64,000 nt of DNA. Origin: a candidate division FCPU426 bacterium. GTDB taxonomy: Bacteria > Oederibacteriota > Muellerivitia > Muellerivitales > Muellerivitaceae. Positions 9,350 to 63,998 of the stretch are shown here, one piece after another; positions within the stretch are counted from its first letter, which is position 1, and each line of letters starts with the position of its first letter. Below the pieces are notes generated by a model that did not search any database, was not told the DNA's origin, and saw only the letters and a list, made by a program, of their open reading frames with translations. The stretch lies in the NCBI GenBank assembly GCA_003152075.1, contig PLZG01000064.1, positions 31-64,030 on the forward strand, written 5' to 3'. The translations under genes and the position numbers were made by a program.

Positions 9350-11944
9350 ATGCGCCACGGCCATCCGGAAAGTGCCGGTGCTGAGATGAGATGGTTTAAG
9401 CGGGCCGAACTGAACTTTATAAGGTTTCAAAGTCCCAATTGGTGGGTCGTTTTGGGTTTTCTGGGCTTAACCGGCCCGGTCATGGCTCAATGCGATAAAC
9501 GGATCGTCGCCTATTACGCCTATTGGGACCAGCCGGCCTATACTTCGGCCAACCTACCCATGAATGAGGTAACCCATATCGAGCATGCCTTCATCAGCCT
9601 GGATACGACGAAAAATGACGGAACCCTTTCGGTTGCTCCCGCTTTTCTGGAGCCGGCCCTCATCGCCAGGGCCCACGCGGCGGGGGTGAAGGTTCTGGTA
9701 TCAGTGGGAGGCAGTGGTGCCGCCCAAGGAACGGCCTTTGAGCTGGTTTCGGCCCGCGCCGCGGGTCGGGTCAATTTCGCCAATAACCTTTACAACTTCT
9801 GCAAGACCAACGGCTATGACGGCGTGGATATTGACTACGAATTTCCACTCAACACGACAGACGAAAGCAATCTTACCCTCATGATGCAGGCCATTCGATC
9901 CGTTCTTCCTGCTCCCACATGGCTCATTTCCATGGCGACGAGCGCCATGGGCAACAATACCTGGAATGGCGCCTACTTTATGAATTTAAACGCGTTGGAG
10001 GGCATCGTGGATTTCTTCAACGTGATGGACTACGATTTTTACGGCGGGTGGGATACCAACAGCGGGCACTTAGCCCCGCAATATCAAAATCCCGCTGATC
10101 CGCAACAGGCGGGGAGCTTCAAAACATCCCTCGATTGGTACCTGGTCACGGCGGGTATTACCCCCTCCAAAATTAACGCGGGCATGCCTTTTTACGCGGA
10201 TGAATTCACGTCCGTCAACGCCCTTTGGAAAAATTGCGGGGGCGGTTGTCCTGTGGTGAATCAGGCTTATGGCACATTCGTTAAACCCCGGCTCAACGCC
10301 ATGGGCTATACCGTCCAATGGGATTCCTCGGCCCAGGCCAATTACTTGACGGGCTCCGACTTTATCACTTATGACAGCGTTACCACCGTGGCCAATAAGA
10401 CCACTTACGCTTTGGGAACCCGCGGTGTCGGCGGGGTGATGATCTGGGAAATATCACAAGATTACGATGGAGCCTCACAGGATTTGCTCACGGCAACGTA
10501 TAACGCTTATGTCGCGCAATGTCCCATCAATACGCCAACCTATACGTTCACGAATACGCCAACGAATACTCCTGTCCCGCCAACGTCCACTTTTACCCTT
10601 ACCCTGACCCGAACCAACACTTCGACGAATACATTCACGAATACGCCTGTGCCGCCGACCAAAACCTTTAACTCCACCTTCACCAATACTCAAGTCCCAC
10701 CTACCAATACCCCAACATTCACGTCCACCTCTACCAATACGGGAACACCCACCTTTACCCGGACGAACACCTCGACCAACACAGCCACCTCCACCAACAC
10801 CCCGGTCAACACTTTCACAGCAACTTCAACCGCCTCCAATACCGGAACCCCAACCTTCACCCAAACGAACACCTTGACCAATACCAATTCGGCCACTTTC
10901 ACCAACACGCCGACTTCAACGCTGACTTTTACCCGAACCTCCACGAACACCCCTACCAATACTGGAACCTCCACCAATACCCCGGTGAATACCTTTACGT
11001 TCACTTCAACTTCCACCAATACGGGAACACCCACCTTTACCCGAACGAACACCTCGACCAACACAGCTACCTCCACCAACACCCCGGTCAACACTTTCAC
11101 GGCTACTTCAACCGCCACCCATACCGGAACCCCAACCTTCACCCAAACGAACACCCCGACCAATACCAATACGGCCACTTTCACCAGCACGCTGACTTCA
11201 ACGCCGACTTTTACCCGGACCTCCACGAGCACCCCTACCAATACTGGAACCTCCACCAATACCCCGACAGGAACCGTTCCTCCGACCAATACCCCCACTT
11301 CAACGGGAACGTCCACCCATACTTCAACTTCCACCAACACTCCCACGCGGACCAATACGCCTACGAATACCTTCACTCCGACATCCACCTCTACTTTGAC
11401 CTTTACCAATACCTTCACCCGGACGAACACCTCCACCAACACCCCGATGAATACCTTTACGGCCACTTCGACTCCAACCAATACTCATACCCGGACTTCC
11501 ACGAGCACTTCGACCAATACCCCCACTCATACGATGACTCCAACATCAACCTCGACGAACACCCCGACGGTTACTTCCACTTATTCGAAGACAAACACGC
11601 CTACGGAAACATCAACCAACACCCCCTCGGTTACAGAAACTTATACTCCGACACTTTCCTCAGTTGTTGTGATCTCACCACCTTTTCCCAATCCGTCGAA
11701 TGGGTCGCCCATTACGTTTAAAATCCAGGTGCCGGGTGAATCAACGGTGACGTTGGATGTGTTTACTTTGGCTTTCCGGAAGATATACGGCGAAACGACC
11801 CAGGCGGATGGTCCCCTGACGCTTCAGTGGGATTTAAAGGATGTTTCGGGGGTACGGGTGGCGAATGGGGTTTATTACGTTCGTATCCAAGTCGTGGGCA
11901 GCCAATCGACGACAAAAATTTATAAAGTACTCATCCTGAGATAA
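9350..11944 (+). CDS. Secreted GH18 chitinase-like glycosidase with Thr-rich linker and T9SS-type C-terminal domain
   Basis: The probable start is ATG 9386 (MRWFKRAELNF...WWVVLGFLGLTGPVMA, a signal peptide). The GH18 catalytic motif DGVDIDYEFP (DxxDxDxE) is present, followed by KVLVSVGG. The C terminus PPFPNPSNGSPITFKIQVP...GVYYVRIQVVGSQSTTKIYKVLILR is homologous to the GH16 C-terminal domain. Confidence 0.8.
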   Translation: MRHGHPESAGAEMRWFKRAELNFIRFQSPNWWVVLGFLGLTGPVMAQCDKRIVAYYAYWDQPAYTSANLPMNEVTHIEHAFISLDTTKNDGTLSVAPAFLEPALIARAHAAGVKVLVSVGGSGAAQGTAFELVSARAAGRVNFANNLYNFCKTNGYDGVDIDYEFPLNTTDESNLTLMMQAIRSVLPAPTWLISMATSAMGNNTWNGAYFMNLNALEGIVDFFNVMDYDFYGGWDTNSGHLAPQYQNPADPQQAGSFKTSLDWYLVTAGITPSKINAGMPFYADEFTSVNALWKNCGGGCPVVNQAYGTFVKPRLNAMGYTVQWDSSAQANYLTGSDFITYDSVTTVANKTTYALGTRGVGGVMIWEISQDYDGASQDLLTATYNAYVAQCPINTPTYTFTNTPTNTPVPPTSTFTLTLTRTNTSTNTFTNTPVPPTKTFNSTFTNTQVPPTNTPTFTSTSTNTGTPTFTRTNTSTNTATSTNTPVNTFTATSTASNTGTPTFTQTNTLTNTNSATFTNTPTSTLTFTRTSTNTPTNTGTSTNTPVNTFTFTSTSTNTGTPTFTRTNTSTNTATSTNTPVNTFTATSTATHTGTPTFTQTNTPTNTNTATFTSTLTSTPTFTRTSTSTPTNTGTSTNTPTGTVPPTNTPTSTGTSTHTSTSTNTPTRTNTPTNTFTPTSTSTLTFTNTFTRTNTSTNTPMNTFTATSTPTNTHTRTSTSTSTNTPTHTMTPTSTSTNTPTVTSTYSKTNTPTETSTNTPSVTETYTPTLSSVVVISPPFPNPSNGSPITFKIQVPGESTVTLDVFTLAFRKIYGETTQADGPLTLQWDLKDVSGVRVANGVYYVRIQVVGSQSTTKIYKVLILR
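10525..11660 (+). repeat. Coding tandem repeats (Thr-rich linker), near-identical to repeats in GH16 gene
   Basis: The same ~102-nt unit as at 5140-5770 is used, including the shared INTPTYTFTNT...PVPPT start and the TGTVPPTNTPTSTGTSTHTSTSTNTP end. Confidence 0.85.
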
Positions 11945-46409: not shown

Positions 46410-46494
46410 CGGGGTGAATGGGCTGAAAATATGTCTCTCGTCATTGAAAGACCAGCTATTTCGACCTAATTTGTCCCTGACAATTAGGTCGGTT

Positions 46495-46645
46495 TAAATA
46501 GCTGTCATTGCGAGGAATGCCCGCCGAATAGGCAGGGGTTATGACAAAGCAACCCCAGTCTAAAAAAGCTTTAAAGGCGTATTTAAACTGAGGTTGCCCC
46601 GTCGTAAACGTTCCCTATTCGGGAGCACTCCTCGCAATGACAGCA
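46495..46645. repeat. MITE-like element B, dimeric palindromic form (two inverted ~72-bp units; unit bounded by TTTAAATA, core CTGTCATTGCGAGGA-GCCCGCGAATAGCGGGC-GCAACC)
   Basis: A 16-bp terminal inverted repeat GCTGTCATTGCGAGGA ... TCCTCGCAATGACAGC is present. The unit recurs at 61534-61612 and, diverged, at 49265-49335. Confidence 0.7.
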
Positions 46646-46669
46646 GGTTAAATTTTTAAAGGAAACGAA

Positions 46670-49264
46670 ATGGATATCAATAAATTCACCCTTAACGCCC
46701 AAAATGCCCTGCAGGCGGCCCAATCGCTGGCCGGCGAATATGGCCATGCCCAGTTGGACGACGAACACCTGATGCTCACCCTTTTACAACAGGAAGAAAG
46801 CGTAGTGCCGCCCCTCCTCAAGAAGATCGGCGTGGACCCAGCTTTGCTGGAAAAGGCCCTGGAAAAGGATTTGAAAGGCCTGCCCAAGGTGGAAGGTGGG
46901 GGGCAAATCTTCGCCACGCCCCGGCTGGCCAAGGTCCTCGACCAAGCCCACAAGGAAGCGGACAAGATGAAGGATGAGTATGTCTCCACCGAGCACTTAT
47001 TCCTGGCGCTTTTAGACGCGCCGCACGCCCAAGGTTACGGCGAGGACTGGGGAGTGAAGGGCCTCACCAAACGCTACGGTTTGAATCGCGACAATGTTTT
47101 GAAAGCCCTCTCCGAAGTCCGGGGTTCCACCCGCGTGACCGACCAGAATCCGGAGGGCAAGTACCAGGCCCTGGAAAAATATGGCAAGGATTTGTGCGAT
47201 CTAGCCCGCCGGGGAAAGCTTGATCCCGTTATCGGGCGCGATGAGGAAATCCGCCGGGTCATCCAGGTTCTCTCCCGCCGTACCAAGAACAATCCCGTAC
47301 TTATAGGAGAACCGGGCGTGGGCAAGACCGCCATTGCCGAAGGTTTAGCTGGGCGTATCGTTTCCGGGGACGTGCCGGAAGGTTTGAAGGGCAAGAAGGT
47401 CATCTCGCTGGATATCGGGGCCATGGTGGCCGGCGCCAAGTTCCGTGGCGAATTCGAGGATCGCTTGAAGGCTTTCCTGAAGGAAGTCACCGAAAGCGAA
47501 GGCCAGATCATCCTCTTTATCGACGAGCTGCATAACCTGGTAGGGGCCGGAAAGGCCGAAGGCTCCATGGACGCTTCCAATATGTTAAAGCCCGTCCTGG
47601 CGCGAGGGGAACTGCGGGCCATCGGCGCCACGACACTAGACGAATACCGCAAGTACATCGAGAAGGACCCGGCCCTGGAACGCCGCTTCCAACAGGTCTT
47701 TGTGGGTGAGCCCTCTGTGCCGGATACCATTTCCATCCTCCGGGGCTTGAAGGAACGCTACGAATTGCACCATGGGGTGCGCATCCAGGATTCGGCCCTG
47801 GTGGCTTGCGCGGTGCTTTCCAACCGCTACATCACCAACCGCTTCCTGCCCGACAAGGCCATCGATCTGATGGACGAGGCCGCTTCCAAACTGCGCATTG
47901 AGATCGATTCCATGCCCGTGGCGCTGGACGAGGTGGAACGCAAGATCCGCCAACTGGAAATTGAGAAACAGGCCCTACAGAAAGAGAAGGATGAGGCTTC
48001 CAAGGAACGCCTGGCCCGCCTGGAAAAGGAAATGGCGGACCTGAAGGAAAACTCCTCCGGAATGAAAGCCCGGTGGCAGGGGGAAAAGAAGGCCATCCAG
48101 GATTTGCGGAAGGCCAAGGAAGAAATCGACACCCTCAAGCTCCAGGAAACCAAGTTAGAGCGGGAAGGCAAGCTCGATAAGGTGGCTGAAATCCGCTACG
48201 ACAAGGTTCCTAAACTACAGGCGCAATTAAAAGAACTGGAAGCCAAGCTGGCCGAGGTCCAGAAAAAGGGAGCCATGTTAAAGGAAGAGGTTACCGACCA
48301 GGAAATCGCCGAGATCGTGGCCAAGTGGACGGGCATCCCGGTTTCCAAAATGATGGAAGGGGAGACGGAAAAGCTTATTCACCTGGAAGACGCCTTGAGG
48401 AAAAGGGTCGTGGGGCAGGAAGAGGCTGTCGAGGCCGTATCCAACGCCATCCGCCGGTCCCGTTCGGGGCTATCCGACCCGAACAAGCCCCTAGGCTCGT
48501 TCCTCTTTGTGGGGCCCACGGGCGTGGGCAAGACCGAGCTGGCGAAGGCGCTGGCTTCTTATCTATTCGACGACGAGAAGATGATGGTGCGCATCGACAT
48601 GAGCGAGTATATGGAGAAACATTCGGTCTCCAGGCTCTTAGGCGCCCCTCCGGGCTATGTGGGTTATGACGAAGGCGGGCAATTGACCGAGGCGGTTCGC
48701 CGCAGGCCCTATTGCGTCATTCTTTTTGACGAGGTGGAAAAGGCCCACGCTGACGTGTTCAATGTCCTGCTCCAGGTGCTGGATGACGGCCGACTGACTG
48801 ATTCCCAAGGCCGGGTGGTGGATTTCAAGAATACCGTGCTGATTATGACAAGTAACATTGCTTCCCAGGCCATTATGGAATCCAAGGCCACGGATAAGGA
48901 CCTAAAGGATGCCCTGCAAAAGGAATTGCGCCAGTTCTTCCGGCCCGAATTCCTCAACCGTATCGACGATATCGTGATTTTCCACAGGCTCAAGGAAGAC
49001 CAGTTGGAATCCATCGTGGATATTCAGTTGGATGGCTTAAGGGCCCGCCTGGCGGATAAAAAGATCAAGCTGGAAATGTCCAAGGGCGCTTTGGTTTATC
49101 TCGCCGAGCGCGGTTATGACCCGGTTTATGGGGCTCGTCCTCTAAAAAGATTAATTCAACACGAACTCGTGGATAAGATGGCCCTGAAGCTCCTCGACGG
49201 AGAGATCAAGGACGGCCAGACGGTCAAAGTTGATGTTAAGAGTGGTGAATTAATCATTAAGTAA
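46670..49264 (+). CDS. clpB: ATP-dependent chaperone / disaggregase ClpB
   Basis: The product is 864 aa. It has an N domain, two AAA+ modules (GEPGVGKT and GPTGVGKT Walker A boxes) and a long middle coiled coil. Confidence 0.95.
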
Positions 49265-49335
49265 CTGTCATTAGGAGGCACCCCAATCGGGGTGTTTGCT
49301 GATGTGGCAACCGCAAGTGCAATTTATAGGTTTCT
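49265..49335 (+). repeat. Diverged unit of MITE-like element B including a terminator-like hairpin directly after clpB stop
   Basis: CTGTCATTAGGAGGCACCCCAATCGGGGTGTTTGCTG...GCAACCGCAAGTGCAATTTATAGG has the same architecture as the 46495 and 61534 units. Confidence 0.5.
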
Positions 49336-49803
49336 TCCTTTTCGAAAAATAAACAGGGAAAACGGTTTTTCCCAAGCGGGACATCCCTATTCGGGGGGGT
49401 GGCCGTTGGGTGAAGTTGGTGTTTGTGGCACCAGGGTGATAGCCTGTTTCTAGAAGATGACTTCCCGAAAGAAGTCCTCTTTCATCGTTTTTTCAGGCCC
49501 GGCCTGCAGCCGGGTTTGCCATCCGAGCCGTTCCATTGGTTTGCCCACCAAAGATTTCATTCATCCCGGTCTTCCTGTCCTTTGGAGTTGCACTCTTGAG
49601 GCGGGAGTCCGGTTTTTCAGTCCCCGGCCTGGGTATTTTCATGCCGGGACTGTTTTCCGTTTCACCCACGAAATTATGGCCTATTGACGAGGAAAGCCAT
49701 GGTTTCCTTCCACGAGGACCGGCTTTGGGAGCCGGCCCCGGGACCACCCCACCTAGGCTGAAACCTAGCCCATCGATGATCGGTGTTTCGCTAGGAGGAT
49801 GCG

Positions 49804-50085
49804 ATGAGAAAAGTAAAACTGGTCTCGTTTTTGGTTTTGAGCTTGGCCCTGTCGGTAGCGCTCCCCGCCTTGGTTTTGGGGCAATCAGTGCCTAAGCCCC
49901 CCGGCGGAAAGCCAACCCCTGTTCCCACATCGACCCCGACCCCTGTCATCGGGGATGACGATGGCGATGTGGACGAGGACGGGGTGGGTTGCTTGGGGGC
50001 GCTGGATTTCCTGTGCAATTGGGGTGGATGTTATCACTTCTACTATTCCAAGTTCGACGGCCAGGGGAGATGCGAACGCCAATAA
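49804..50085 (+). CDS. Small secreted Cys-rich peptide (hypothetical)
   Basis: 93 aa. The RBS aggagg lies 6 nt upstream. The signal peptide MRKVKLVSFLVLSLALSVALPALVLG is followed by a PT linker, an acidic stretch and 4 Cys (CLGALDFLCNWGGCYHF...GRCERQ). A terminator follows. Confidence 0.45.
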   Translation: MRKVKLVSFLVLSLALSVALPALVLGQSVPKPPGGKPTPVPTSTPTPVIGDDDGDVDEDGVGCLGALDFLCNWGGCYHFYYSKFDGQGRCERQ

Positions 50086-50108
50086 AACTGGAGAAGGTGC
50101 AATTGGGG

Positions 50109-50150
50109 CCGGTTCCCTTTGGGTAGCCGGCCTTTTTTTATTTATTGAGG
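50109..50150 (+). terminator. Rho-independent terminator
   Basis: The sequence is ggccggttccctttgggtagccggcctttttttattt. Confidence 0.6.
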
Positions 50151-50199
50151 AGGTCCATGGAAAAGCGCCAAAGGGGCCAGCATGGCCCTTTTGGCGCTC

Positions 50200-50329
50200 T
50201 TTAAAAAGATTAATTCAGCATGAACTTGTGGATAAAATGGCCTTGAAGCTCCTCGATGGGGAGATCAAGGATGGCCAGACGGTGAAAGTGGATTTTTCTA
50301 AAGGTGGGAAATTAATCATTAAGGTTTAA
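50200..50329 (+). pseudogene. Remnant copy of the clpB 3' end (last ~42 codons, ~85% nt identity to 49140-49264)
   Basis: It encodes [42 protein letters not shown]. The clpB C terminus is [40 protein letters not shown]. Confidence 0.75.
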
Positions 50330-50344
50330 CAAAAGAGGTTTGTC

Positions 50345-50539
50345 ATGCCAGCCAAGCCATCTCCTAAAAAATCCGGGTTGTCCCCCGACTACCATTACGA
50401 CGCTGATCATGATCAAGTCGAAATCCTCTGGAAATGCCTGCGCTGCGGCGAACTGATGCCGCGGGGTTCCCAACCTCCCGATAAATGTCCTTCCTGCGGC
50501 GCCCCCAAGACGGAATTCGTTTTATTGGATGAGGATTAG
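50345..50539 (+). CDS. Small zinc-ribbon protein (2x CxxC)
   Basis: 64 aa carrying CLRCGELMP...CPSCGAP. Its stop is immediately followed by MITE-like element A. Confidence 0.4.
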   Translation: MPAKPSPKKSGLSPDYHYDADHDQVEILWKCLRCGELMPRGSQPPDKCPSCGAPKTEFVLLDED

Positions 50540-50700
50540 AACCTCTAACAAAATTCAAAGGCATTGAAACAGGGATGGACGCAGACGTGCTACGCACGCG
50601 CAGATATGAAGAAAACAAGAAGTTTTAAGCTTTTTAATCGGCGTTCATCAGCGTTTATCACTGTTCCAAGGATTTTTGTTAGAGCCTCTTAATCTCTTTT
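50540..50700 (-). repeat. MITE-like element A, second copy (inverted relative to 17140-17300)
   Basis: It has terminal inverted repeats CTCTAACAAAAT...GATTTTTGTTAGAG and an internal palindrome gacgcagacgtgctacgcacgcgcag. Confidence 0.7.
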
Positions 50701-50714
50701 CGACGGAGAAAAAC

Positions 50715-51103
50715 ATGAGGGAAGTCAAAGTTTCGAAGGGGCCCGGCCAGCTGGCCCAACAGGTGGAGATCGGCCCCATCACTTGACCGCCGATGAGCCC
50801 ACGACCAACCAGGGGGAGGATTTGGGCCCCAATCCCTTCGAGTACCTGGCTGCCGCCCTGGGCGCCTGCACGGCCCTGACCGCCAAACTTTACGCGAAGC
50901 GGAAGGAATGGCCCCTGGAGGACACCGACGTCCGGGTCGCCCTCACCCGGCAGGATGATTTGACGGTCTTTGACCGGAAGGTGAAATTCGTGGGGAATCT
51001 GGACCAGGCCCAAAGGGAACGGCTTCTGGAGATCGTCAACCATTGCCCGGTCCATAAGGCCCTTACCGGCCGCATCCGGGTTGATACGGCGCTTGTGGAA
51101 TAA
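50715..51103 (+). pseudogene. OsmC/YhfA-family protein gene with a -1 frameshift in a C-run (pseudogene or homopolymer sequencing error)
   Basis: Frame A reads MREVKVSKGPGQLAQQVEIGPIT*. The shifted frame continues (P)HHLTADEPTTNQGEDLGPNPFEYLAAALGACTAL...VNHCPVHKAL, the OsmC core. One extra C in ggcccc at ~50772-50777 would restore a single ORF. Confidence 0.5.
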
Positions 51104-51127: not shown

Positions 51128-51466
51128 GTGGCGATAACCAAGGAAGAACTGCTGGAAAAGATGAAGGAAAAGAATGTGGTGGTCCTGGATGTCCTGCCCT
51201 TTGCGGATTATGAAAAGCTGAGGATCAAGGGGTCGGATAGCTTGCCGATCATCGGAATACGCCCGGAGGTTTTCGCCCGGGCGGTCGAGGCCAAATACGG
51301 GAAGGACAAGTTCTTCGTTACTTATTGTTCCGGCTTTCCTTGCCGCCATTTCATGGAAGCGGCCGATGCCCTCGTCAAACAGGGCCTTCAAGCGCAGGGT
51401 TATCCGGGCGGTATCCAGGAATGGGCCGAATCGGGACTGCCGGTGGAAGGAACCCAGGTCAAATAA
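51128..51466 (+). CDS. Single-domain rhodanese-like sulfurtransferase
   Basis: 112 aa. ...VVVLDVLPFADYEKLRIKGSDSLPI...FFVTYCSGFPCRHF is the active-site Cys loop. Confidence 0.7.
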   Translation: MAITKEELLEKMKEKNVVVLDVLPFADYEKLRIKGSDSLPIIGIRPEVFARAVEAKYGKDKFFVTYCSGFPCRHFMEAADALVKQGLQAQGYPGGIQEWAESGLPVEGTQVK

Positions 51467-51575
51467 ATCGACGGTCAAAGTGGATGTGTCCAAGGGCGGC
51501 CTGCCCTCCGACCTGCTTGCCGAAGCTTTAGCGTAGGCGGGAGCTTTATGCGTAGGAGGGGGAACTAATGATTAA
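51300..51575 (+). repeat. Repeat R copy 1 (3' ~170 nt of rhodanese gene + ~100 nt downstream ending in clpB-C-terminus-like tag)
   Basis: It is the template for the copies at 54267-54590 and 62536-62730. The downstream part encodes TVKVDVSKGG...GELMIK*. Confidence 0.8.
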
Positions 51576-51680
51576 GTCGTAAAGTGTTAAATGGTCAATG
51601 TTCCCCGGTGACAACAAAGATAAGCTTCTGACAGCCTCCCCCTCTATCCCATAGTCTAAATTTGCCATTTTCCCTTATTA

Positions 51681-54266
51681 ATGGCCATGGCATGTCCTAT
51701 GCACCCTCAATCCAAACGACTTTTTCCTTTTGCCGGAGAGGTGTGCGTGGAAATAAGGAAGTTTTCCCCAAAATTTCGGTTGTTTGGTCCTTTCGGATTT
51801 ACAGGTCCCTCCAGGTCGCAAACCCGGTATTGGACAAGGGGTATCTTCTTGGCCGTGAGCCTCTTCTGGGGGATCACCCAACCCGGAACTAGCCAACAGC
51901 TTGGAATCTTCACGGTCGGCAGCACTGTTTATCCCACCCAGGGTTTGCGGCGTGTGGCCAAGATTGTGTTGAGCAATACGAACTATCAAGGGCTTTACGG
52001 CGCGGCGATCGACGCGGCCAACGGTTACGCTTATTGGGTAGGACGCAACGGCTCGCTCAGTAAAATCAATTTGACGACCTTCACCGAGGAAAGCACGATC
52101 GTCGGCCTCGGGCAATCCTATGGTTCTTTTGTCGATGACCCGAATGGATTTGGTTATTTTGAATCCGGGGCGAATATCTATAAGGTAAAACTTGGCGGCC
52201 CCGCGGTGCTTCCCATACTAGAAGCCACGCTTGTTCCCGGTGGAAATTTTTACGGCGGGGTGATTGATAAGAGCAACGCGGACCCCACCAAGCATTACAT
52301 CTATTTTATCGATGGCAATAAACCCGCAACGGTCTACAAGTATTTGCTGCCCTCGCCCTCCGGTGGTGACTTGGATAATAAACTGCCCACTTTGGTGGGT
52401 TCGGTTCTCTTAAACAGCCCTAACTTTCCTACTACGGGTTTCACCTACCATGGTGTGATAGACACCGGAGCCGGCTTCGCCTACTTTTCCGGTTTTAACA
52501 CCAATCAGATAGCCAAAATCGCCCTGAATGGGGCGGGTACCCCCACCGAAGTTGGCGTCATAACAACAACCGATCCGGCGACCACTGCTTATGGTTTCCT
52601 CCCTGATATTGACGCGACCGGCGCGACCCATTACGCCTATTTGGGAACCTATGTACCTCACGTGCTTGCGGATGTGGTTAAGATCAACCTGACGAGTTTT
52701 ACCGAGGTCTCCAACGCGACACTCAACTCGGGGACAGGAGGCTGTAACGGCCCCACCGCAATGGAACAAATGCTTTCCGCCGGGCTGGGCGATTCGACCA
52801 GCGGCTATACGGTTTATGGAACGGACGGCGTTTTTCCGATGAAGGTTTTCAAGATCAAGAACAACGCCGGTAATTTGGCTCCAACCGAAAACGCCGGGGC
52901 GCCCCTTTCGCTCCTGGGGGGGACAAGCGTTCCACCTTGTGATGGAAATGCCGGAGTAGCCGATGCCTCTCCCGATGGCGGCCTCACTTATCCCTATGGG
53001 GAAGTTTTTGCCCAGGGTTCGGTGATCGACAATGGGGCCGGTTACGCTTATTTTGGAACCGATAGTGGACCGGGACAAATAATAAAGGTAGCCTTCTCTC
53101 AAAAAGCGGCCATCAAGGGAACAAAGGTTGTGTTGGCCCAAGCGGTCACCGTAAACGACCTCAATTTTTATTCCACCGCGGCGGGCGGGCATGTGCGTCT
53201 GGCCATTTACGACAATGCCGCCACTCCCAACCTGCTTTGGGATTCGGGCGCGTTGGTCAATGGCGCTACCGGATGGATCACGGCCACCATCGCTTCGGGT
53301 AGCCCCTCTTCCCTGACCCTCAACCCCGGAACTTACTGGCTGTGCTGGCAAGTGGATACCACGTTGGACATTCCCAGCTACAGTTCGGGAAACCCGGGCG
53401 ACGGTTTTTTACAGGATCAGGCTTTCGGGGCTTATCCGGGAATCTTGAACACAACCCAAAGTACCTCCGAAACCTGGAGCGAGTACCTGGATTACACCGT
53501 TTCCGGGGCTACCCCCAGCGCGACAGCTTCCCCGACTCCGACATTAACTCCAACACAAACGGGGACCAATACCTTGACGTCTACGCCGACAAGTACTCCT
53601 TCGAGCACTCCCACCACCACACCCAGCAATAGCCCGACGAATACAGCCACCAACAGTCCGATTCCAAGTCCCACCAATACGGGAACCCTTGCCCCCACCA
53701 ATACCGCAACGAGTAGCCCTACGAATACGTCCACGAACACGCCTTCTCAAACGCCAACATCCACGGCCACGAATAGCTTGACCCCGACCGCATCCAACAG
53801 CCCAAGCGCGACGGCGACAGCATCCTTGACCAACAGCCCGACTTTGTCGCCCACAGGGACGGCCTCATCGACACCGACTTTGACCCCAACCCAAACGGAA
53901 ACAGGCACACCGACGAATACCCTGTCCGCTACTCCCACCGGGTCACTTACCAACACCCCAACCCCGGCGGTGACGGGAGTGGTGATCGGGCTACCCTATC
54001 CCAATCCCATCCGGGGCGAAGGGCCCCTTAACATTGACGTGCAGGGCCCATCGGGAACTACCCTTACCTGGGATGTTTTTACGGCGGCTTATCGTAAGAT
54101 CGCGGGCGGCTCCCAGCCTGTTTCGGGAAGCACTACCATCGCCTGGGACCTAACCGATAAGTTTGGCACCCCCGTGGCCAACGGCCTCTATTACATCCGG
54201 ATCAAGGTGACGGTGGGTGGGGCAGTGACCACTAAAATTTTGAAGGTACTTGTCTTAAATCATTAA
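51681..54266 (+). CDS. Large secreted protein, beta-propeller-like repeats + Thr/Ser/Pro linker + T9SS-type C-terminal sorting domain
   Basis: A signal-like stretch GIFLAVSLFWGITQPGTS is present. Repeated GYAYW/GFGYF/GFAYF segments suggest a propeller. The linker spans 53510-53980. The C-terminal domain reads LPYPNPIRGEGPLNIDVQ...GLYYIRIKVTVGGAVTTKILKVLVLNH. The exact start is uncertain. Confidence 0.55.
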   Translation: MAMACPMHPQSKRLFPFAGEVCVEIRKFSPKFRLFGPFGFTGPSRSQTRYWTRGIFLAVSLFWGITQPGTSQQLGIFTVGSTVYPTQGLRRVAKIVLSNTNYQGLYGAAIDAANGYAYWVGRNGSLSKINLTTFTEESTIVGLGQSYGSFVDDPNGFGYFESGANIYKVKLGGPAVLPILEATLVPGGNFYGGVIDKSNADPTKHYIYFIDGNKPATVYKYLLPSPSGGDLDNKLPTLVGSVLLNSPNFPTTGFTYHGVIDTGAGFAYFSGFNTNQIAKIALNGAGTPTEVGVITTTDPATTAYGFLPDIDATGATHYAYLGTYVPHVLADVVKINLTSFTEVSNATLNSGTGGCNGPTAMEQMLSAGLGDSTSGYTVYGTDGVFPMKVFKIKNNAGNLAPTENAGAPLSLLGGTSVPPCDGNAGVADASPDGGLTYPYGEVFAQGSVIDNGAGYAYFGTDSGPGQIIKVAFSQKAAIKGTKVVLAQAVTVNDLNFYSTAAGGHVRLAIYDNAATPNLLWDSGALVNGATGWITATIASGSPSSLTLNPGTYWLCWQVDTTLDIPSYSSGNPGDGFLQDQAFGAYPGILNTTQSTSETWSEYLDYTVSGATPSATASPTPTLTPTQTGTNTLTSTPTSTPSSTPTTTPSNSPTNTATNSPIPSPTNTGTLAPTNTATSSPTNTSTNTPSQTPTSTATNSLTPTASNSPSATATASLTNSPTLSPTGTASSTPTLTPTQTETGTPTNTLSATPTGSLTNTPTPAVTGVVIGLPYPNPIRGEGPLNIDVQGPSGTTLTWDVFTAAYRKIAGGSQPVSGSTTIAWDLTDKFGTPVANGLYYIRIKVTVGGAVTTKILKVLVLNH

Positions 54267-54590
54267 AAGGACAAGTTCTTCATCACTTATTGCTCGGGTT
54301 TTCCCTGCCGCCATTTCATTGAAGCGGCCTATGCCCTCGTCCAACAGGGCCTTCAAGCGCAGGGTTATCCGGGCGGTATCCAGGAATGGGCCGAATCGGG
54401 ACTGCCGGTGGAAGGAACCCAGGTCAAATAAATCGACGGCAAAGCCTGCCCCGAGCTTGCCTGCGGTGAGCGACCGACCTGTCCCCAGAAGCTGCCTGTC
54501 TACCGAAGCTTTAACGTAGGTAGATAGCGTAGGGGGAAGGGAGTCGAATCCGGTCGGCGTGCCCAAGGGCGGGGAACTGATGATCAAGTA
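54267..54590 (+). repeat. Repeat R copy 2 (truncated rhodanese 3' end, begins exactly at the stop codon of the upstream gene)
   Basis: It encodes DKFFITYCSGFPCRHFIEAAYALVQQGLQAQGYPGGIQEWAESGLPVEGTQVK*, which is 93% identical to the rhodanese C terminus. The copy ends with ...VPKGGELMIK*. Confidence 0.8.
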
Positions 54591-54843
54591 AGTCGGCCTG
54601 CCCATCCCGCAAATTCCCGCGGATATTATTAACGCCTTGTAAAATAATCCGTTTTAAATCTATACCATTGCGGCAAACCCTGAATTCTCTCTTACTCCAC
54701 CCCCGGGTGGAGAAAATGATTGACTTTATAAACCCATGTTTTTATAAAAGGTAACTGTTTTCCCGCTTACACCGCTATTTCCCCACATAAGCCGGGTAGA
54801 AATTAAATTTTTTCCATTTCCATGGATACCAGGAGAGGTTTGC

Positions 54844-61533: not shown

Positions 61534-61612
61534 ATAATAGCTGTCATTGCGATGAGTGCCCCGCGAATAGCGGGGCGGTTACGACGAAGCAACCTCAGTT
61601 TAAATATGCCTT
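61534..61612 (+). repeat. MITE-like element B, single unit
   Basis: The sequence is GCTGTCATTGCGATGAGTGCCCCGCGAATAGCGGGGCGGTTACGACGAAGCAACCTCAGTTTAAATA. It is preceded by the hairpin TCGAGGTCA...TGACCTCGA after the autotransporter stop. Confidence 0.7.
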
Positions 61613-62535: not shown

Positions 62536-62730
62536 TTCATTTTCCCTGCCGCCATTTCATGGAAGCGGCCGATGTCTTTGTCAAACAGGGCCTTCAAGCG
62601 CAGGGTTATCCGGGCGGACTCCAGGAATGGGCCGAATCGGGATTGCCGGTGGAAGGAACCCAGGTTAAGTAAGTCGACAGTCAAAGTCGATGTGTCCAGG
62701 GGTCGCCAGTTATCCATTATTTACATTTAA
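62536..62730 (+). repeat. Repeat R copy 3 (shorter truncated rhodanese 3' end + clpB-like tag TVKVDVSRGRQLSIIYI*)
   Basis: It encodes ...PCRHFMEAADVFVKQGLQAQGYPGGLQEWAESGLPVEGTQVK* in the rhodanese frame. Confidence 0.8.
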
Positions 62731-62771
62731 GAAAACTGGCCATGCGCGAATTTCAAATATAATTTCCTAAA

Positions 62772-63998
62772 ATGAACCGGACCAACATGACTACCCAAAG
62801 CCGAAACCCCACTTTCATTATCCTCATCCTGGGCGCCCTCTCGACCGTCAGCCCCTTTTCCATCGACATGTACCTTCCCTCCTTTCCCCAGATCGCCCAA
62901 AGCCTGGGCTGTCCCACCGCGCGGGTTTCCCTGTCGCTCTCCAGCTATTTCATCGGCATGGGGCTGGGGCAGATACTCTACGGCCCCTTCCTCGACCACT
63001 TCGGCCGCAAAAGGCCCCTCTATTTCGGGTTGGGGCTTTATATTCTCTCGTCCGTGGGCTGCCTAGCCGCCGGTTCCCTGGAGATCCTCATCGCCCTGCG
63101 CTTCTTGCAGGCTCTCGGCGGTTGCGCGGCGGGGGTGGCTTCCATGGCCATGGTGCGGGACTTCTTCCACGTCAAGGAAAGCGCGAAAGTCTTTTCCCTG
63201 CTCATGCTCATCCTGAGCGTTTCACCCCTCTTGGCGCCAACCGTGGGGGGCTTCGTGACCCTACACTTGGGTTGGCGTTGGATATTCGTTCTTTTGGCGG
63301 CCATTTCCCTAGCCATCCTGGCGGTGGTCATTTTCTTTTTACCCGAAGGCCACAAGCCCGACCCCAAGGCCACCTTGAGTTTCAAGAAAAGCCTCAAGAA
63401 CTTCGCCATGATCCTCAAGGAACCCAAGTTCCACGCCTATGCCATCGTGGGTTCGCTTTCCATCTCGGGCCTGTTCGCCTATATCGCCGGCTCGCCCATC
63501 ATCTTTTTGGAAATCTACAACGTGGGGCCCAAGTTCTATGGCGCCATCTTCGCCCTTCTCGCGGCGGGCTTTATCGGGGGAAGCCAGGTGAATATCTGGC
63601 TCCTCAAGCGTTATTCCAGTGAGGAGATATTGAGGAAGGCCATCTGGGGCCAATGCCTGGTGGGGATGCTGTTCTTGCTCTTTGCCCTGGCCGGCTGGCT
63701 CAACCTGGCGGGAACCCTGGTCTTCCTATTTGCCGTGCTGTCCTGCGCCGGCATGGTCAACCCCAACGCGGGGGCCCTGGCCCTGAGGCCCTTCGGCCGT
63801 CACGCGGGGAGCGCCTCGGCTTTGTTGGGGTTCATCCAGATCAGCTTCGGGTCCCTGACCTCGGGGGCGGTGGGGTTCTTCAATTTCAAGAGCGCCCTTC
63901 CGACCATCACCATTTTGGCACTGACGGCCTTGGCGGGCCTACTGGCCTGCGGTGAGCTTGTCGAACCCGTCTCGGCCCTGGTCAAAAAAACCAGATGA
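62772..63998 (+). CDS. Bcr/CflA-family MFS drug-efflux transporter
   Basis: MYLPSFPQIAQSLG...GRKRPL...LRFLQALGGCAAGVASMAMVRD are family motifs. The product is 408 aa with 12 TM helices. Confidence 0.85.
   Translation: MNRTNMTTQSRNPTFIILILGALSTVSPFSIDMYLPSFPQIAQSLGCPTARVSLSLSSYFIGMGLGQILYGPFLDHFGRKRPLYFGLGLYILSSVGCLAAGSLEILIALRFLQALGGCAAGVASMAMVRDFFHVKESAKVFSLLMLILSVSPLLAPTVGGFVTLHLGWRWIFVLLAAISLAILAVVIFFLPEGHKPDPKATLSFKKSLKNFAMILKEPKFHAYAIVGSLSISGLFAYIAGSPIIFLEIYNVGPKFYGAIFALLAAGFIGGSQVNIWLLKRYSSEEILRKAIWGQCLVGMLFLLFALAGWLNLAGTLVFLFAVLSCAGMVNPNAGALALRPFGRHAGSASALLGFIQISFGSLTSGAVGFFNFKSALPTITILALTALAGLLACGELVEPVSALVKKTR

Follow-up and report, generated by a model that had tools for sequence, protein, structure and literature searches.

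How does an intact housekeeping gene come to be followed by a second copy of its own 3' end? The question is raised by the chaperone gene clpB of a candidate division FCPU426 bacterium, in a 64,000-nt stretch (contig PLZG01000064.1 of assembly GCA_003152075.1; hereafter the window) in which a 934-bp insert with a gene for a 93-aa secreted peptide is flanked by direct repeats of the clpB 3' end while clpB stays full length. We found that the downstream repeat belongs to an array of displaced clpB and rhodanese gene ends (relics), that the two clpB ends differ as coding sequences from different lineages do, and that the insert carries a cassette that is laterally mobile among relatives. Our preferred account, to which we give a little better than an even chance, is serial homology-anchored tip displacement, as at rhs and type VI secretion system (T6SS) loci, here at housekeeping genes.

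The two ends of clpB

The clpB gene (46670-49264; plus strand, as are both repeat copies, the relics, the MITE half-unit, leader, peptide gene and terminator of the insert and the ZnR, OsmC-like and rhodanese genes described below) is intact and encodes 864 aa with the Pfam domains Clp_N, AAA, AAA_lid_9, AAA_2 and ClpB_D2-small. Its product is 84-63% identical to ClpB of FCPU426 and other metagenome-assembled genomes. An earlier note on this DNA had stated that the last ~125 nt of clpB recur downstream at ~85% identity, and three methods bore this out: MAFFT alignment of 49120-49290 with 50180-50345 gave 85% column identity, a repeat-family search (family D1) gave 98 ungapped nt at 88% identity, and BLASTN gave 84.8% identity over 125 nt (E = 7e-35). 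We set the limits of homology at 49136-49264 for the left copy, which is the working clpB 3' end, and at 50195-50329 for the right copy (relic B), with the left edge placed to within ~10 nt. Alignment with the working end showed no gaps other than two in-frame indels of 3 nt each, and a stop codon closes both copies. The translation of relic B, whose tail reads ...VDFSKGGKLIIKV before the stop, matches positions 50-81 of the 81 in Pfam ClpB_D2-small, and the working tail (...VKSGELIIK-stop) is also present in ClpB of another lineage (P0053). As had been claimed, clpB thus keeps a complete 3' end and an alternative end lies downstream of the insert. The architecture is identical in four independent assemblies (L001-L004), which excludes an assembly artefact. 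A second clpB gene extending upstream of the relic was also ruled out, in agreement with the earlier reading, because the peptide gene and a hairpin lie directly upstream of it. No tRNA or tmRNA gene, as a possible insertion target, was found in the window.

The divergence between the two ends is of the coding type. Over 31 codons (L to D), relic B and the working end show 11 synonymous and no nonsynonymous differences (Sd = 11, Nd = 0; proportion of synonymous differences, pS, 0.57), a pattern that has P = 3e-8 if substitutions were random. This value matches clpB divergence between genera, with whole-gene pS of 0.53 between the window and L085, which represents another genus-level relative, and 0.59 between the window and L005. 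Furthermore, the tail type of relic B (...IIKV-stop) occurs in real ClpBs of the clade (P0051, P0060, P0069 and P0115), and only three residues of the relic are candidates for decay, namely P>S, which falls at the junction, V>F, and E>K. The exclusively synonymous differences at between-genus pS therefore indicate that both ends diverged inside functional clpB genes, in different lineages, and hence that at least one of them is foreign in the window genome; either the working end or the relic may be the foreign one.

These results bear on the simplest route to a direct repeat, which would be tandem duplication in place: the clpB end, or a longer stretch that deletions then cut back, would have been doubled, and the second copy would have decayed neutrally. 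Deletions of the kind needed do happen here, since a miniature inverted-repeat transposable element (MITE) in the window has lost 120 nt and a hairpin has been deleted in part in the relative L094. However, decay predicts mostly nonsynonymous changes and is contradicted by Sd = 11 and Nd = 0; in addition, the relic has a natural alternative tail, and the DNA between the copies was acquired laterally, as described below. We regard duplication in place as very improbable. Judged by its codons, relic B is a displaced former working clpB end and not an in-place duplicate. The corresponding relics of the relatives L093 and L094 are decayed, and one of them is interrupted by a MITE. A proposal that relic B is younger than these was dropped, as the 0 versus 4 nonsynonymous differences in the 31 codons become ~3 versus 5 over the whole relic, which is not significant.

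The insert and its exchange among relatives

The insert holds everything that the earlier note had listed, that is, a MITE unit, noncoding DNA, a 93-aa open reading frame (ORF) with a ribosome-binding site (RBS), a terminator and a hairpin. Right after the clpB stop begins a degenerate MITE half-unit (49265-49327) with 3 mismatches to the CTGTCATTGCGAGGA terminus, which aligns with units at 61541 and 46502. This family is represented in the window by a full copy upstream of clpB (46502-46643, in an element at 46493-46652) and by half-units at 49265-49327 and 61541-61612; at the position of the former, L094 has a ~190-nt version.

Next comes a conserved noncoding leader of ~470 nt (49328-49803) with a hairpin, GGGAAAACGGTTTTTCCC, at 49356-49373. 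Its counterparts in relatives (L085 7537-8000, L089 1524-1988, L093 193-662, L094 266-729 and L095 981-1461) show 88-93% identity in five species and 78-82% to L095. Comparison with Rfam gave no match at gathering thresholds and only chance-level matches at E up to 10. The z-score of its minimum free energy was -3.6 on the plus strand and -2.2 on the minus strand, and covariation among the six sequences amounted to 5 double-change pairs against 2.1 expected, a result equalled by 24 of 500 shuffles. Against the outgroup L095 the leader is ~80% identical, whereas the synonymous sites of the peptide gene are less conserved (pS 0.40-0.56). The leader is a candidate for a new structured RNA or a long regulatory leader. 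We rejected RNA-guided targeting as a role for it: neither similarity nor complementarity between the leader and the clpB target was significant, and the best local alignment of leader and target was no better than 241 of 300 shuffles.

The peptide gene (49804-50085) has AGGAGG 6 nt before its ATG and encodes a signal peptide (of Sec type, judged by eye), a linker rich in P and T, the motif DDDGD and a C-terminus that varies and is rich in Cys, His and aromatic residues. The ORF is intact in six species with all indels in frame, and dN/dS is ~1 among the five close copies and ~0.5 to L095. A word-indexed search yielded 7 homologues, and a profile search of 1.84 billion representatives yielded 8 at E < 1e-5. 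The four-Cys C-x7-C-x4-C spacing, which the earlier note had suggested looking for in similar peptides, is confined to the window copy; the one Cys that hardly varies among the homologues is the C-terminal one. The earlier note also saw in the peptide a candidate exported toxin, bacteriocin or signal, and it may or may not be one of these. A precursor of a bacteriocin or of a ribosomally synthesized and post-translationally modified peptide would be expected to match a family or to have maturation, export or immunity genes beside it; the 93-aa product has no Pfam match, and its gene has no such genes beside it, its neighbours being clpB and a redox operon. Its contexts in L085, L089 and L095 have no partner gene in common.

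The 3' side of the peptide gene carries a stem and T-run resembling an intrinsic terminator (50107-50146, from folding), which is kept in all six cassette copies. It is followed by the hairpin at 50164-50198 (assigned to neither strand), said earlier to be near-perfect and to abut the remnant. On folding, its stem proved perfect over 16 bp, with a 3' arm that enters the start of relic B, a DNA dG of -19.2 kcal/mol and z = -4.7; it is single copy in the window and has no Rfam family. The inner stem is common to L085 (10 bp) and L093 (6 bp), whereas L094 has lost part of the hairpin and L089 and L095 lack it, and in the window changes in the 5' arm lengthen the stem to 16 bp by pairing with the GGCGC of the junction. 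A 15-codon mini-ORF (MEKRQRGQHGPFGAL-stop, 50157-50202) with a GAGGAGG RBS runs across this hairpin to a stop codon in the junction. A mini-ORF resembling it is present in L085 (MEKKQRGQCGPFSAVP-stop), and L093 is without one.

Relic and hairpin might have been kept for a function. They might, for instance, terminate transcription or insulate the peptide gene from the operon of the zinc-ribbon gene (ZnR) that follows, or they might serve ZnR as 5' UTR or promoter. This proposal concerns persistence and not origin. The extension of the stem through changes in the 5' arm, the end of the relic 15 nt before the ZnR start codon and the small number of candidate decay substitutions (about three) would suit it. 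Against it, the relics of L093 and L094 are decayed, as noted above, and no promoter-like site was found in 49100-50700; retention for function, a proposal read from the sequence, appears to us decidedly improbable.

The cassette unit, consisting of leader, peptide gene and terminator, with the hairpin optional, occurs in six FCPU426 species and in at least four contexts. In the window, the order is clpB, MITE, cassette, hairpin, clpB relic and ZnR. L094 has clpB, the longer MITE, the cassette, half of the hairpin and a clpB relic of another tail type together with the downstream DNA of that type, and L093 has the cassette with clpB fragments on either side. In L085, clpB is followed by 80 nt, a repetitive extragenic palindromic (REP) unit, the cassette, the hairpin, two unrelated genes and a clpB relic at 10686-10747. 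L089 has an OsmC gene, ZnR, the cassette right after the ZnR stop, and a rhodanese relic of 18 nt joined to one of clpB, and in L095 the cassette comes after an unrelated gene and its terminator. The insertion is thus not peculiar to the window genome, since cassettes follow clpB in L085, ZnR in L089 and an unrelated gene in L095. The zinc-ribbon protein encoded at 1319-1513 of L089 lacks the first Cys pair (KCLRCG to KYLRFG), although its gene is otherwise 91% identical to that of the window, and may be inactivated.

The cassette is far less diverged than the genomes that carry it. Its peptide gene has a pS range of 0.10-0.22, compared with 0.53 for the host clpB and 0.67 for a syntenic GH1 gene. 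Between the window and L085, peptide pS was 0.135 and the leader 90% identical, whereas pS was 0.53 for clpB and 0.67 for GH1 (61% aa identity; Fisher P = 2.5e-10), and the syntenic host genes of these two are saturated at synonymous sites. Between the window and L094, 18 codons of the clpB tail contain 8 synonymous differences, while pS in the adjoining cassette is 0.12 (P = 1.3e-4). The cassette must therefore be much younger than the separation of its carrier genomes, and the insert is, by these divergences, a laterally exchanged cassette.

Such mobility raises the possibility that the cassette is a non-autonomous transposable element, associated with a palindrome as in the IS200/IS605 type, that landed beside a clpB relic already in place, the two events being unrelated. 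Its fairly sharp edges, its low divergence in four contexts and divergent hosts, a 7-bp hairpin ~20-30 nt inside the left edge with another hairpin at the right edge, and the MITE or REP units at most junctions are consistent with this. However, we found neither a transposase nor terminal inverted repeats, and no target duplication or shared motif at the target; the flanks differ, and the copies in L089 and L095 have no right hairpin. The L089 cassette replaces an operon segment from the ZnR stop to the last ~18 nt of the rhodanese gene, which is a substitution and not a simple insertion, and the 64-kb window has a single copy. BLAST of phage and plasmid collections gave no match, and the 14 matches in IMG/VR share only an 18-nt hairpin and not the cassette. 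We consider a transposable element quite unlikely. A pattern scan of metagenomes added only one cassette contig, from the same species as L089.

The relic array and its formation

Relic B is followed by further relics, which were found by BLAST of relatives and repeats against the window and confirmed by reading and alignment. The clpB relics at 50195, 51470, 54559 and 62674 and the rhodanese relics at 54267 and ~62538 all lie on the plus strand and bracket blocks of genes. The order is clpB, cassette, clpB relic, ZnR-OsmC-rhodanese block, clpB relic, a gene for 861 aa, rhodanese and clpB relics, a gene for 2214 aa with a Sel1/LysM gene, rhodanese and clpB relics, ancestral downstream DNA and a major facilitator superfamily gene. 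The rhodanese gene shows the pattern that the earlier note had likened to clpB, with its 3' end present three times (in the full gene at 51128-51466 and in relics at 54267-54431 and ~62538-62672).

The first block begins with ZnR (50345-50539), which encodes a zinc-ribbon or rubredoxin-like protein of 64 aa (Pfam DUF7130 and RUBY_RBDX), starts 15 nt past the stop of relic B and in relatives normally sits after OsmC. It continues with an OsmC-like gene (50716-51103), apparently frameshifted, with Pfam OsmC on the ORF at 50783-51103, and with the intact rhodanese gene (112 aa; Pfam Rhodanese). The N-terminal OsmC piece (ATG 50716 to TGA 50786) is off-frame from the 50783-51103 ORF around a run of C, and the same 106-aa OsmC gene call is present in three other assemblies. 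ZnR and the OsmC-like gene are separated by another element with inverted repeats (50531-50696). Directly after the rhodanese stop (51466) starts junction J1 (ATCGAC), which together with clpB relic C occupies 51467-51582. This relic reads TVKVDVSKGG, then a REP-like insert (51500-51560), then ELMIKS-stop, and is of the same tail type as the relic at 10686-10747 of L085.

The second rhodanese relic (165 nt) begins on the first base past the stop (54266) of the 861-aa secreted-protein gene and is followed by J1, REP-like inserts and a clpB tail (VPKGGELMIK-stop, 54559-54591), the whole spanning 54267-54591; this copy had not been part of the earlier note's finding. The third, after the 2214-aa and Sel1/LysM genes, is followed by J1 and by clpB relic D (62674-62730; TVKVDVSRGRQLSII..., of the QLSII type), the whole spanning 62538-62775. 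The DNA past relic D is the sequence found downstream of the working clpB in L085 (88% identical to L085 7330-7407). J1 also occurs twice in L089, and therefore the oldest layers of the array predate the split of these species. Distant relatives have an undisturbed redox operon away from clpB, in the order OsmC-ZnR-(ferredoxin or Pyr_redox)-Redoxin-DsbA-rhodanese, and the ZnR-OsmC-rhodanese block of the window looks like a rearranged and reduced version of it. Likely ancestral forms of the operon are present at 7564-9866 of L097 and 7363-10812 of L099, peroxiredoxin, DsbA-like and rhodanese genes included.

Small repeats were seen at almost every junction of the array, among them REP-like CCGAAGCTTTAGCG units inside two clpB relics (51520 and 54503). 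Two large secreted proteins of the window (864 aa, 9350-11944; 861 aa, 51681-54266) share a long P/T-rich linker and a C-terminal FlgD_ig-like domain; one of them has a GH18-like N-terminus, by eye, and one is cargo of the array.

The relics differ widely in length. Those of clpB measure about 130 nt (window, L093 and L094), 45 nt (at J1), 60 nt (L085), 35 nt (L089) and 375 nt (L115), in addition to a 3'-truncated internal piece in L093 and a 20-nt GELIIK-stop stub past downstream DNA of the QLSII type, and those of the rhodanese gene measure ~165, ~135, at least 195 and 18 nt. There are, accordingly, at least five different boundaries for clpB and four for rhodanese, and the variation of the left edges argues against one fixed att core and for homology-anchored recombination. 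The L115 relic (319-789 of ERZ27257067 k141_1668243; tail ELIIKV-stop), from another community member, is the longest seen and is fused to AT-rich, apparently foreign DNA.

No recombinase domain was detected in the ORFs tested between 39.8 and 64 kb. The only recombinase of the window is a 361-aa tyrosine recombinase (1057-2142; Pfam Phage_integrase, E = 5.9e-26), 45 kb from the array, which with a preceding Xis/MerR-like helix-turn-helix ORF forms the end of a separate integrated element (787-2142). The earlier proposal of a single recombination system that recognizes gene ends was not supported in that form, given that each event seems to have left a relic with its own left edge and that a recombinase is absent from 44-64 kb.

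The varying relic lengths, which the rhs model predicts ("partial core of varying lengths"; PMC2935791) and a single att core does not, and the lack of a nearby recombinase are among our reasons for favoring tip displacement. The mechanism and order of events that we infer are as follows. Foreign DNA would recombine into the clpB end, bringing its own replacement end and pushing the old end (50195-50329) downstream, with the MITE and the ~860-nt cassette (leader, peptide gene, terminator and hairpin) as cargo. This could occur by a single crossover of a circular intermediate with a partial clpB end, or by a homologous crossover in clpB combined with an illegitimate joint, at the level of microhomology, at the other end (homology-facilitated illegitimate recombination, HFIR); either variant would give an intact gene, cargo and a truncated 3' copy. 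Repeated events at clpB, and later at the rhodanese gene that had arrived there, would build the co-oriented array. The 3' arm of the hairpin, CCCTTTTGGCGC, resembles clpB GGTTTATGGCGC, a resemblance that is possibly compatible with a microhomology joint.

Several observations weigh against this reading. The window, L093 and L094 have the junction between the hairpin and the clpB relic at one and the same position, yet past the 17-nt block TTAAAAAGATTAATTCA their relics are different alleles, and such a shared junction could mean site-specific recombination at TTAAAAAGATTAATTCA. Between the window and L094, the working clpB ends have reached the divergence of host genes, though the same MITE and a similar, young cassette follow both; the replacement end therefore did not simply travel with the present cassette, and one has to suppose either a subsequent swap of just the cassette or an ancient arrangement in which the cassette became homogenized. 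No circular form or recombinant read was observed in the material, which consisted of assemblies (circles need reads to show), and our sample is of six species, mostly on short contigs. We know of no natural competence or other route of DNA uptake in the uncultured FCPU426. Finally, the empty site that had been predicted, with clpB followed directly by ZnR, was not found in any relative examined. The search covered a ClpB scan of 185,579 species genomes, the more distant FCPU426 genomes L005-L008, the contexts of 33 ZnR homologues, and ClpB C-termini with the tail of the relic. L005-L008 have clpB without insert or relic and with different downstream genes, and the search by tail yielded the 375-nt relic of L115 instead.

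The shared junction also speaks for a different explanation, in which the insert is a non-autonomous integrative element (a cis-mobilizable element, CIME; an integrative and mobilizable element; or a pseudo-staphylococcal cassette chromosome) moved by a tyrosine or serine recombinase encoded elsewhere. Its attB would lie in the clpB 3' end with a core near TTAAAAAGATTAATTCA, the hairpin would be part of attP, and the array would have grown as element after element entered the site restored by the one before. In favor of this, the insert lies between direct repeats of the target 3' end with the gene intact, the perfect hairpin abuts the junction, the genome has an integrase together with an Xis-like gene (787-2142), and derived states are shared in the first 9 nt past the junction (cgc tYt tta, compared with cgt ccN ctN in working ends) in three species with different relic alleles. 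On the other hand, TTAAAAAGATTAATTCA is the longest perfectly conserved block, and homologous crossovers would concentrate there too. The repeats are only 85% identical, with a longest identity block of 17 nt, the recombinase is absent within 45 kb, the relic boundaries are many (see above), the cassette also occupies sites other than clpB without a duplicated gene end (L089 and L095), and the hairpin is missing or degenerate in 3 of 6 copies.

Known elements offer precedents for this explanation. SCCmec (staphylococcal cassette chromosome mec) inserts at rlmH/orfX, and integrative and conjugative elements (ICE) of the ICESt type, with CIME accretion, at fda. The prophages e14 and phage 21 integrate in icd and leave the icdC 3' pseudogene (PMC13626634). 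In systems of this type, as here, the element supplies a 3' end, different mainly at synonymous sites, with which the target stays whole, and the displaced original end becomes a short pseudogene at the far side; elements, including some without their own recombinase, accumulate in tandem at the regenerated site. In contrast to these systems, an integrase is absent from and beside the 934-bp insert, relic boundaries vary, and the cassette is also found away from clpB. Altogether, we judge an integrative element unlikely, if worth keeping in view.

A dedicated FCPU426 system for capturing cassettes at gene ends would have the right-end hairpin, perhaps with the leader, as the site of a recombinase encoded elsewhere. 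Cassettes with a replacement tip would enter the last ~20-130 nt of conserved genes, whose ends would act like integron attachment sites and build ordered arrays. We hold such a system, as a whole, to be rather improbable. True integron cassettes have attC sites with paired R and L boxes and an IntI integrase at the head of the array, whereas here the repeats between blocks are gene 3' ends and the hairpin is a perfect palindrome, and no IntI-like gene lies next to the array.

Tip displacement, the reading that we prefer, has close parallels. At rhs loci, an intact gene is followed by direct repeats of varying length, each with a displaced tip (Jackson et al. 2009, PMC2935791), and HFIR has been proposed for T6SS effector arrays (Kirchberger et al. 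2017, PMC5361080). As in those arrays and in the orphan arrays of contact-dependent inhibition (CDI) loci, a full gene is followed here by co-oriented fragments of its own 3' end, with a partial conserved start of varying length, each bracketing laterally acquired DNA. The mechanism proposed for rhs and T6SS is homologous recombination via circular intermediates, or HFIR anchored in the conserved part. The tips of rhs, CDI and T6SS genes differ in being non-homologous toxin domains with cognate immunity genes that diversify the protein, whereas the genes concerned here are a housekeeping chaperone and a rhodanese, the tips encode near-identical peptides, and what is delivered is the DNA that follows the tip. 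We found no signature of toxins or immunity genes in the array, whose cargo consists of the peptide gene, the redox operon and large secreted proteins.

HFIR itself was described in naturally transformable bacteria (de Vries & Wackernagel 2002; Prudhomme et al. 2002; Meier & Wackernagel 2003, as these studies are cited in PMC5361080). A homologous anchor, which here would be clpB, and a microhomology joint inside the recipient gene end would give an intact gene, cargo and a truncated copy; HFIR is experimentally defined, rare and reported from a few cultured species, while the joint at clpB is inferred from sequence only.

Implications for FCPU426

Tip displacement at a recombination hot spot is a known process; what would be new here is that housekeeping genes are the targets, in an uncultured phylum, with a mobile cassette as the latest cargo. 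If our account is correct, tip displacement would not be peculiar to polymorphic-toxin loci but would be a general route of DNA entry at the ends of housekeeping genes. The stack of relics would then be a readable record of the order of acquisition, and the relics themselves would serve as portable homology arms with which a cassette could move between genera without a dedicated recombinase. The locus offers a concrete, datable case of lateral exchange in FCPU426, a phylum without genetics. The cassette, with its ~470-nt leader and its gene for a secreted peptide rich in Asp, His and Cys, is conserved across genera and unannotated, and it may have an RNA-regulated or metal-related function that is worth testing.

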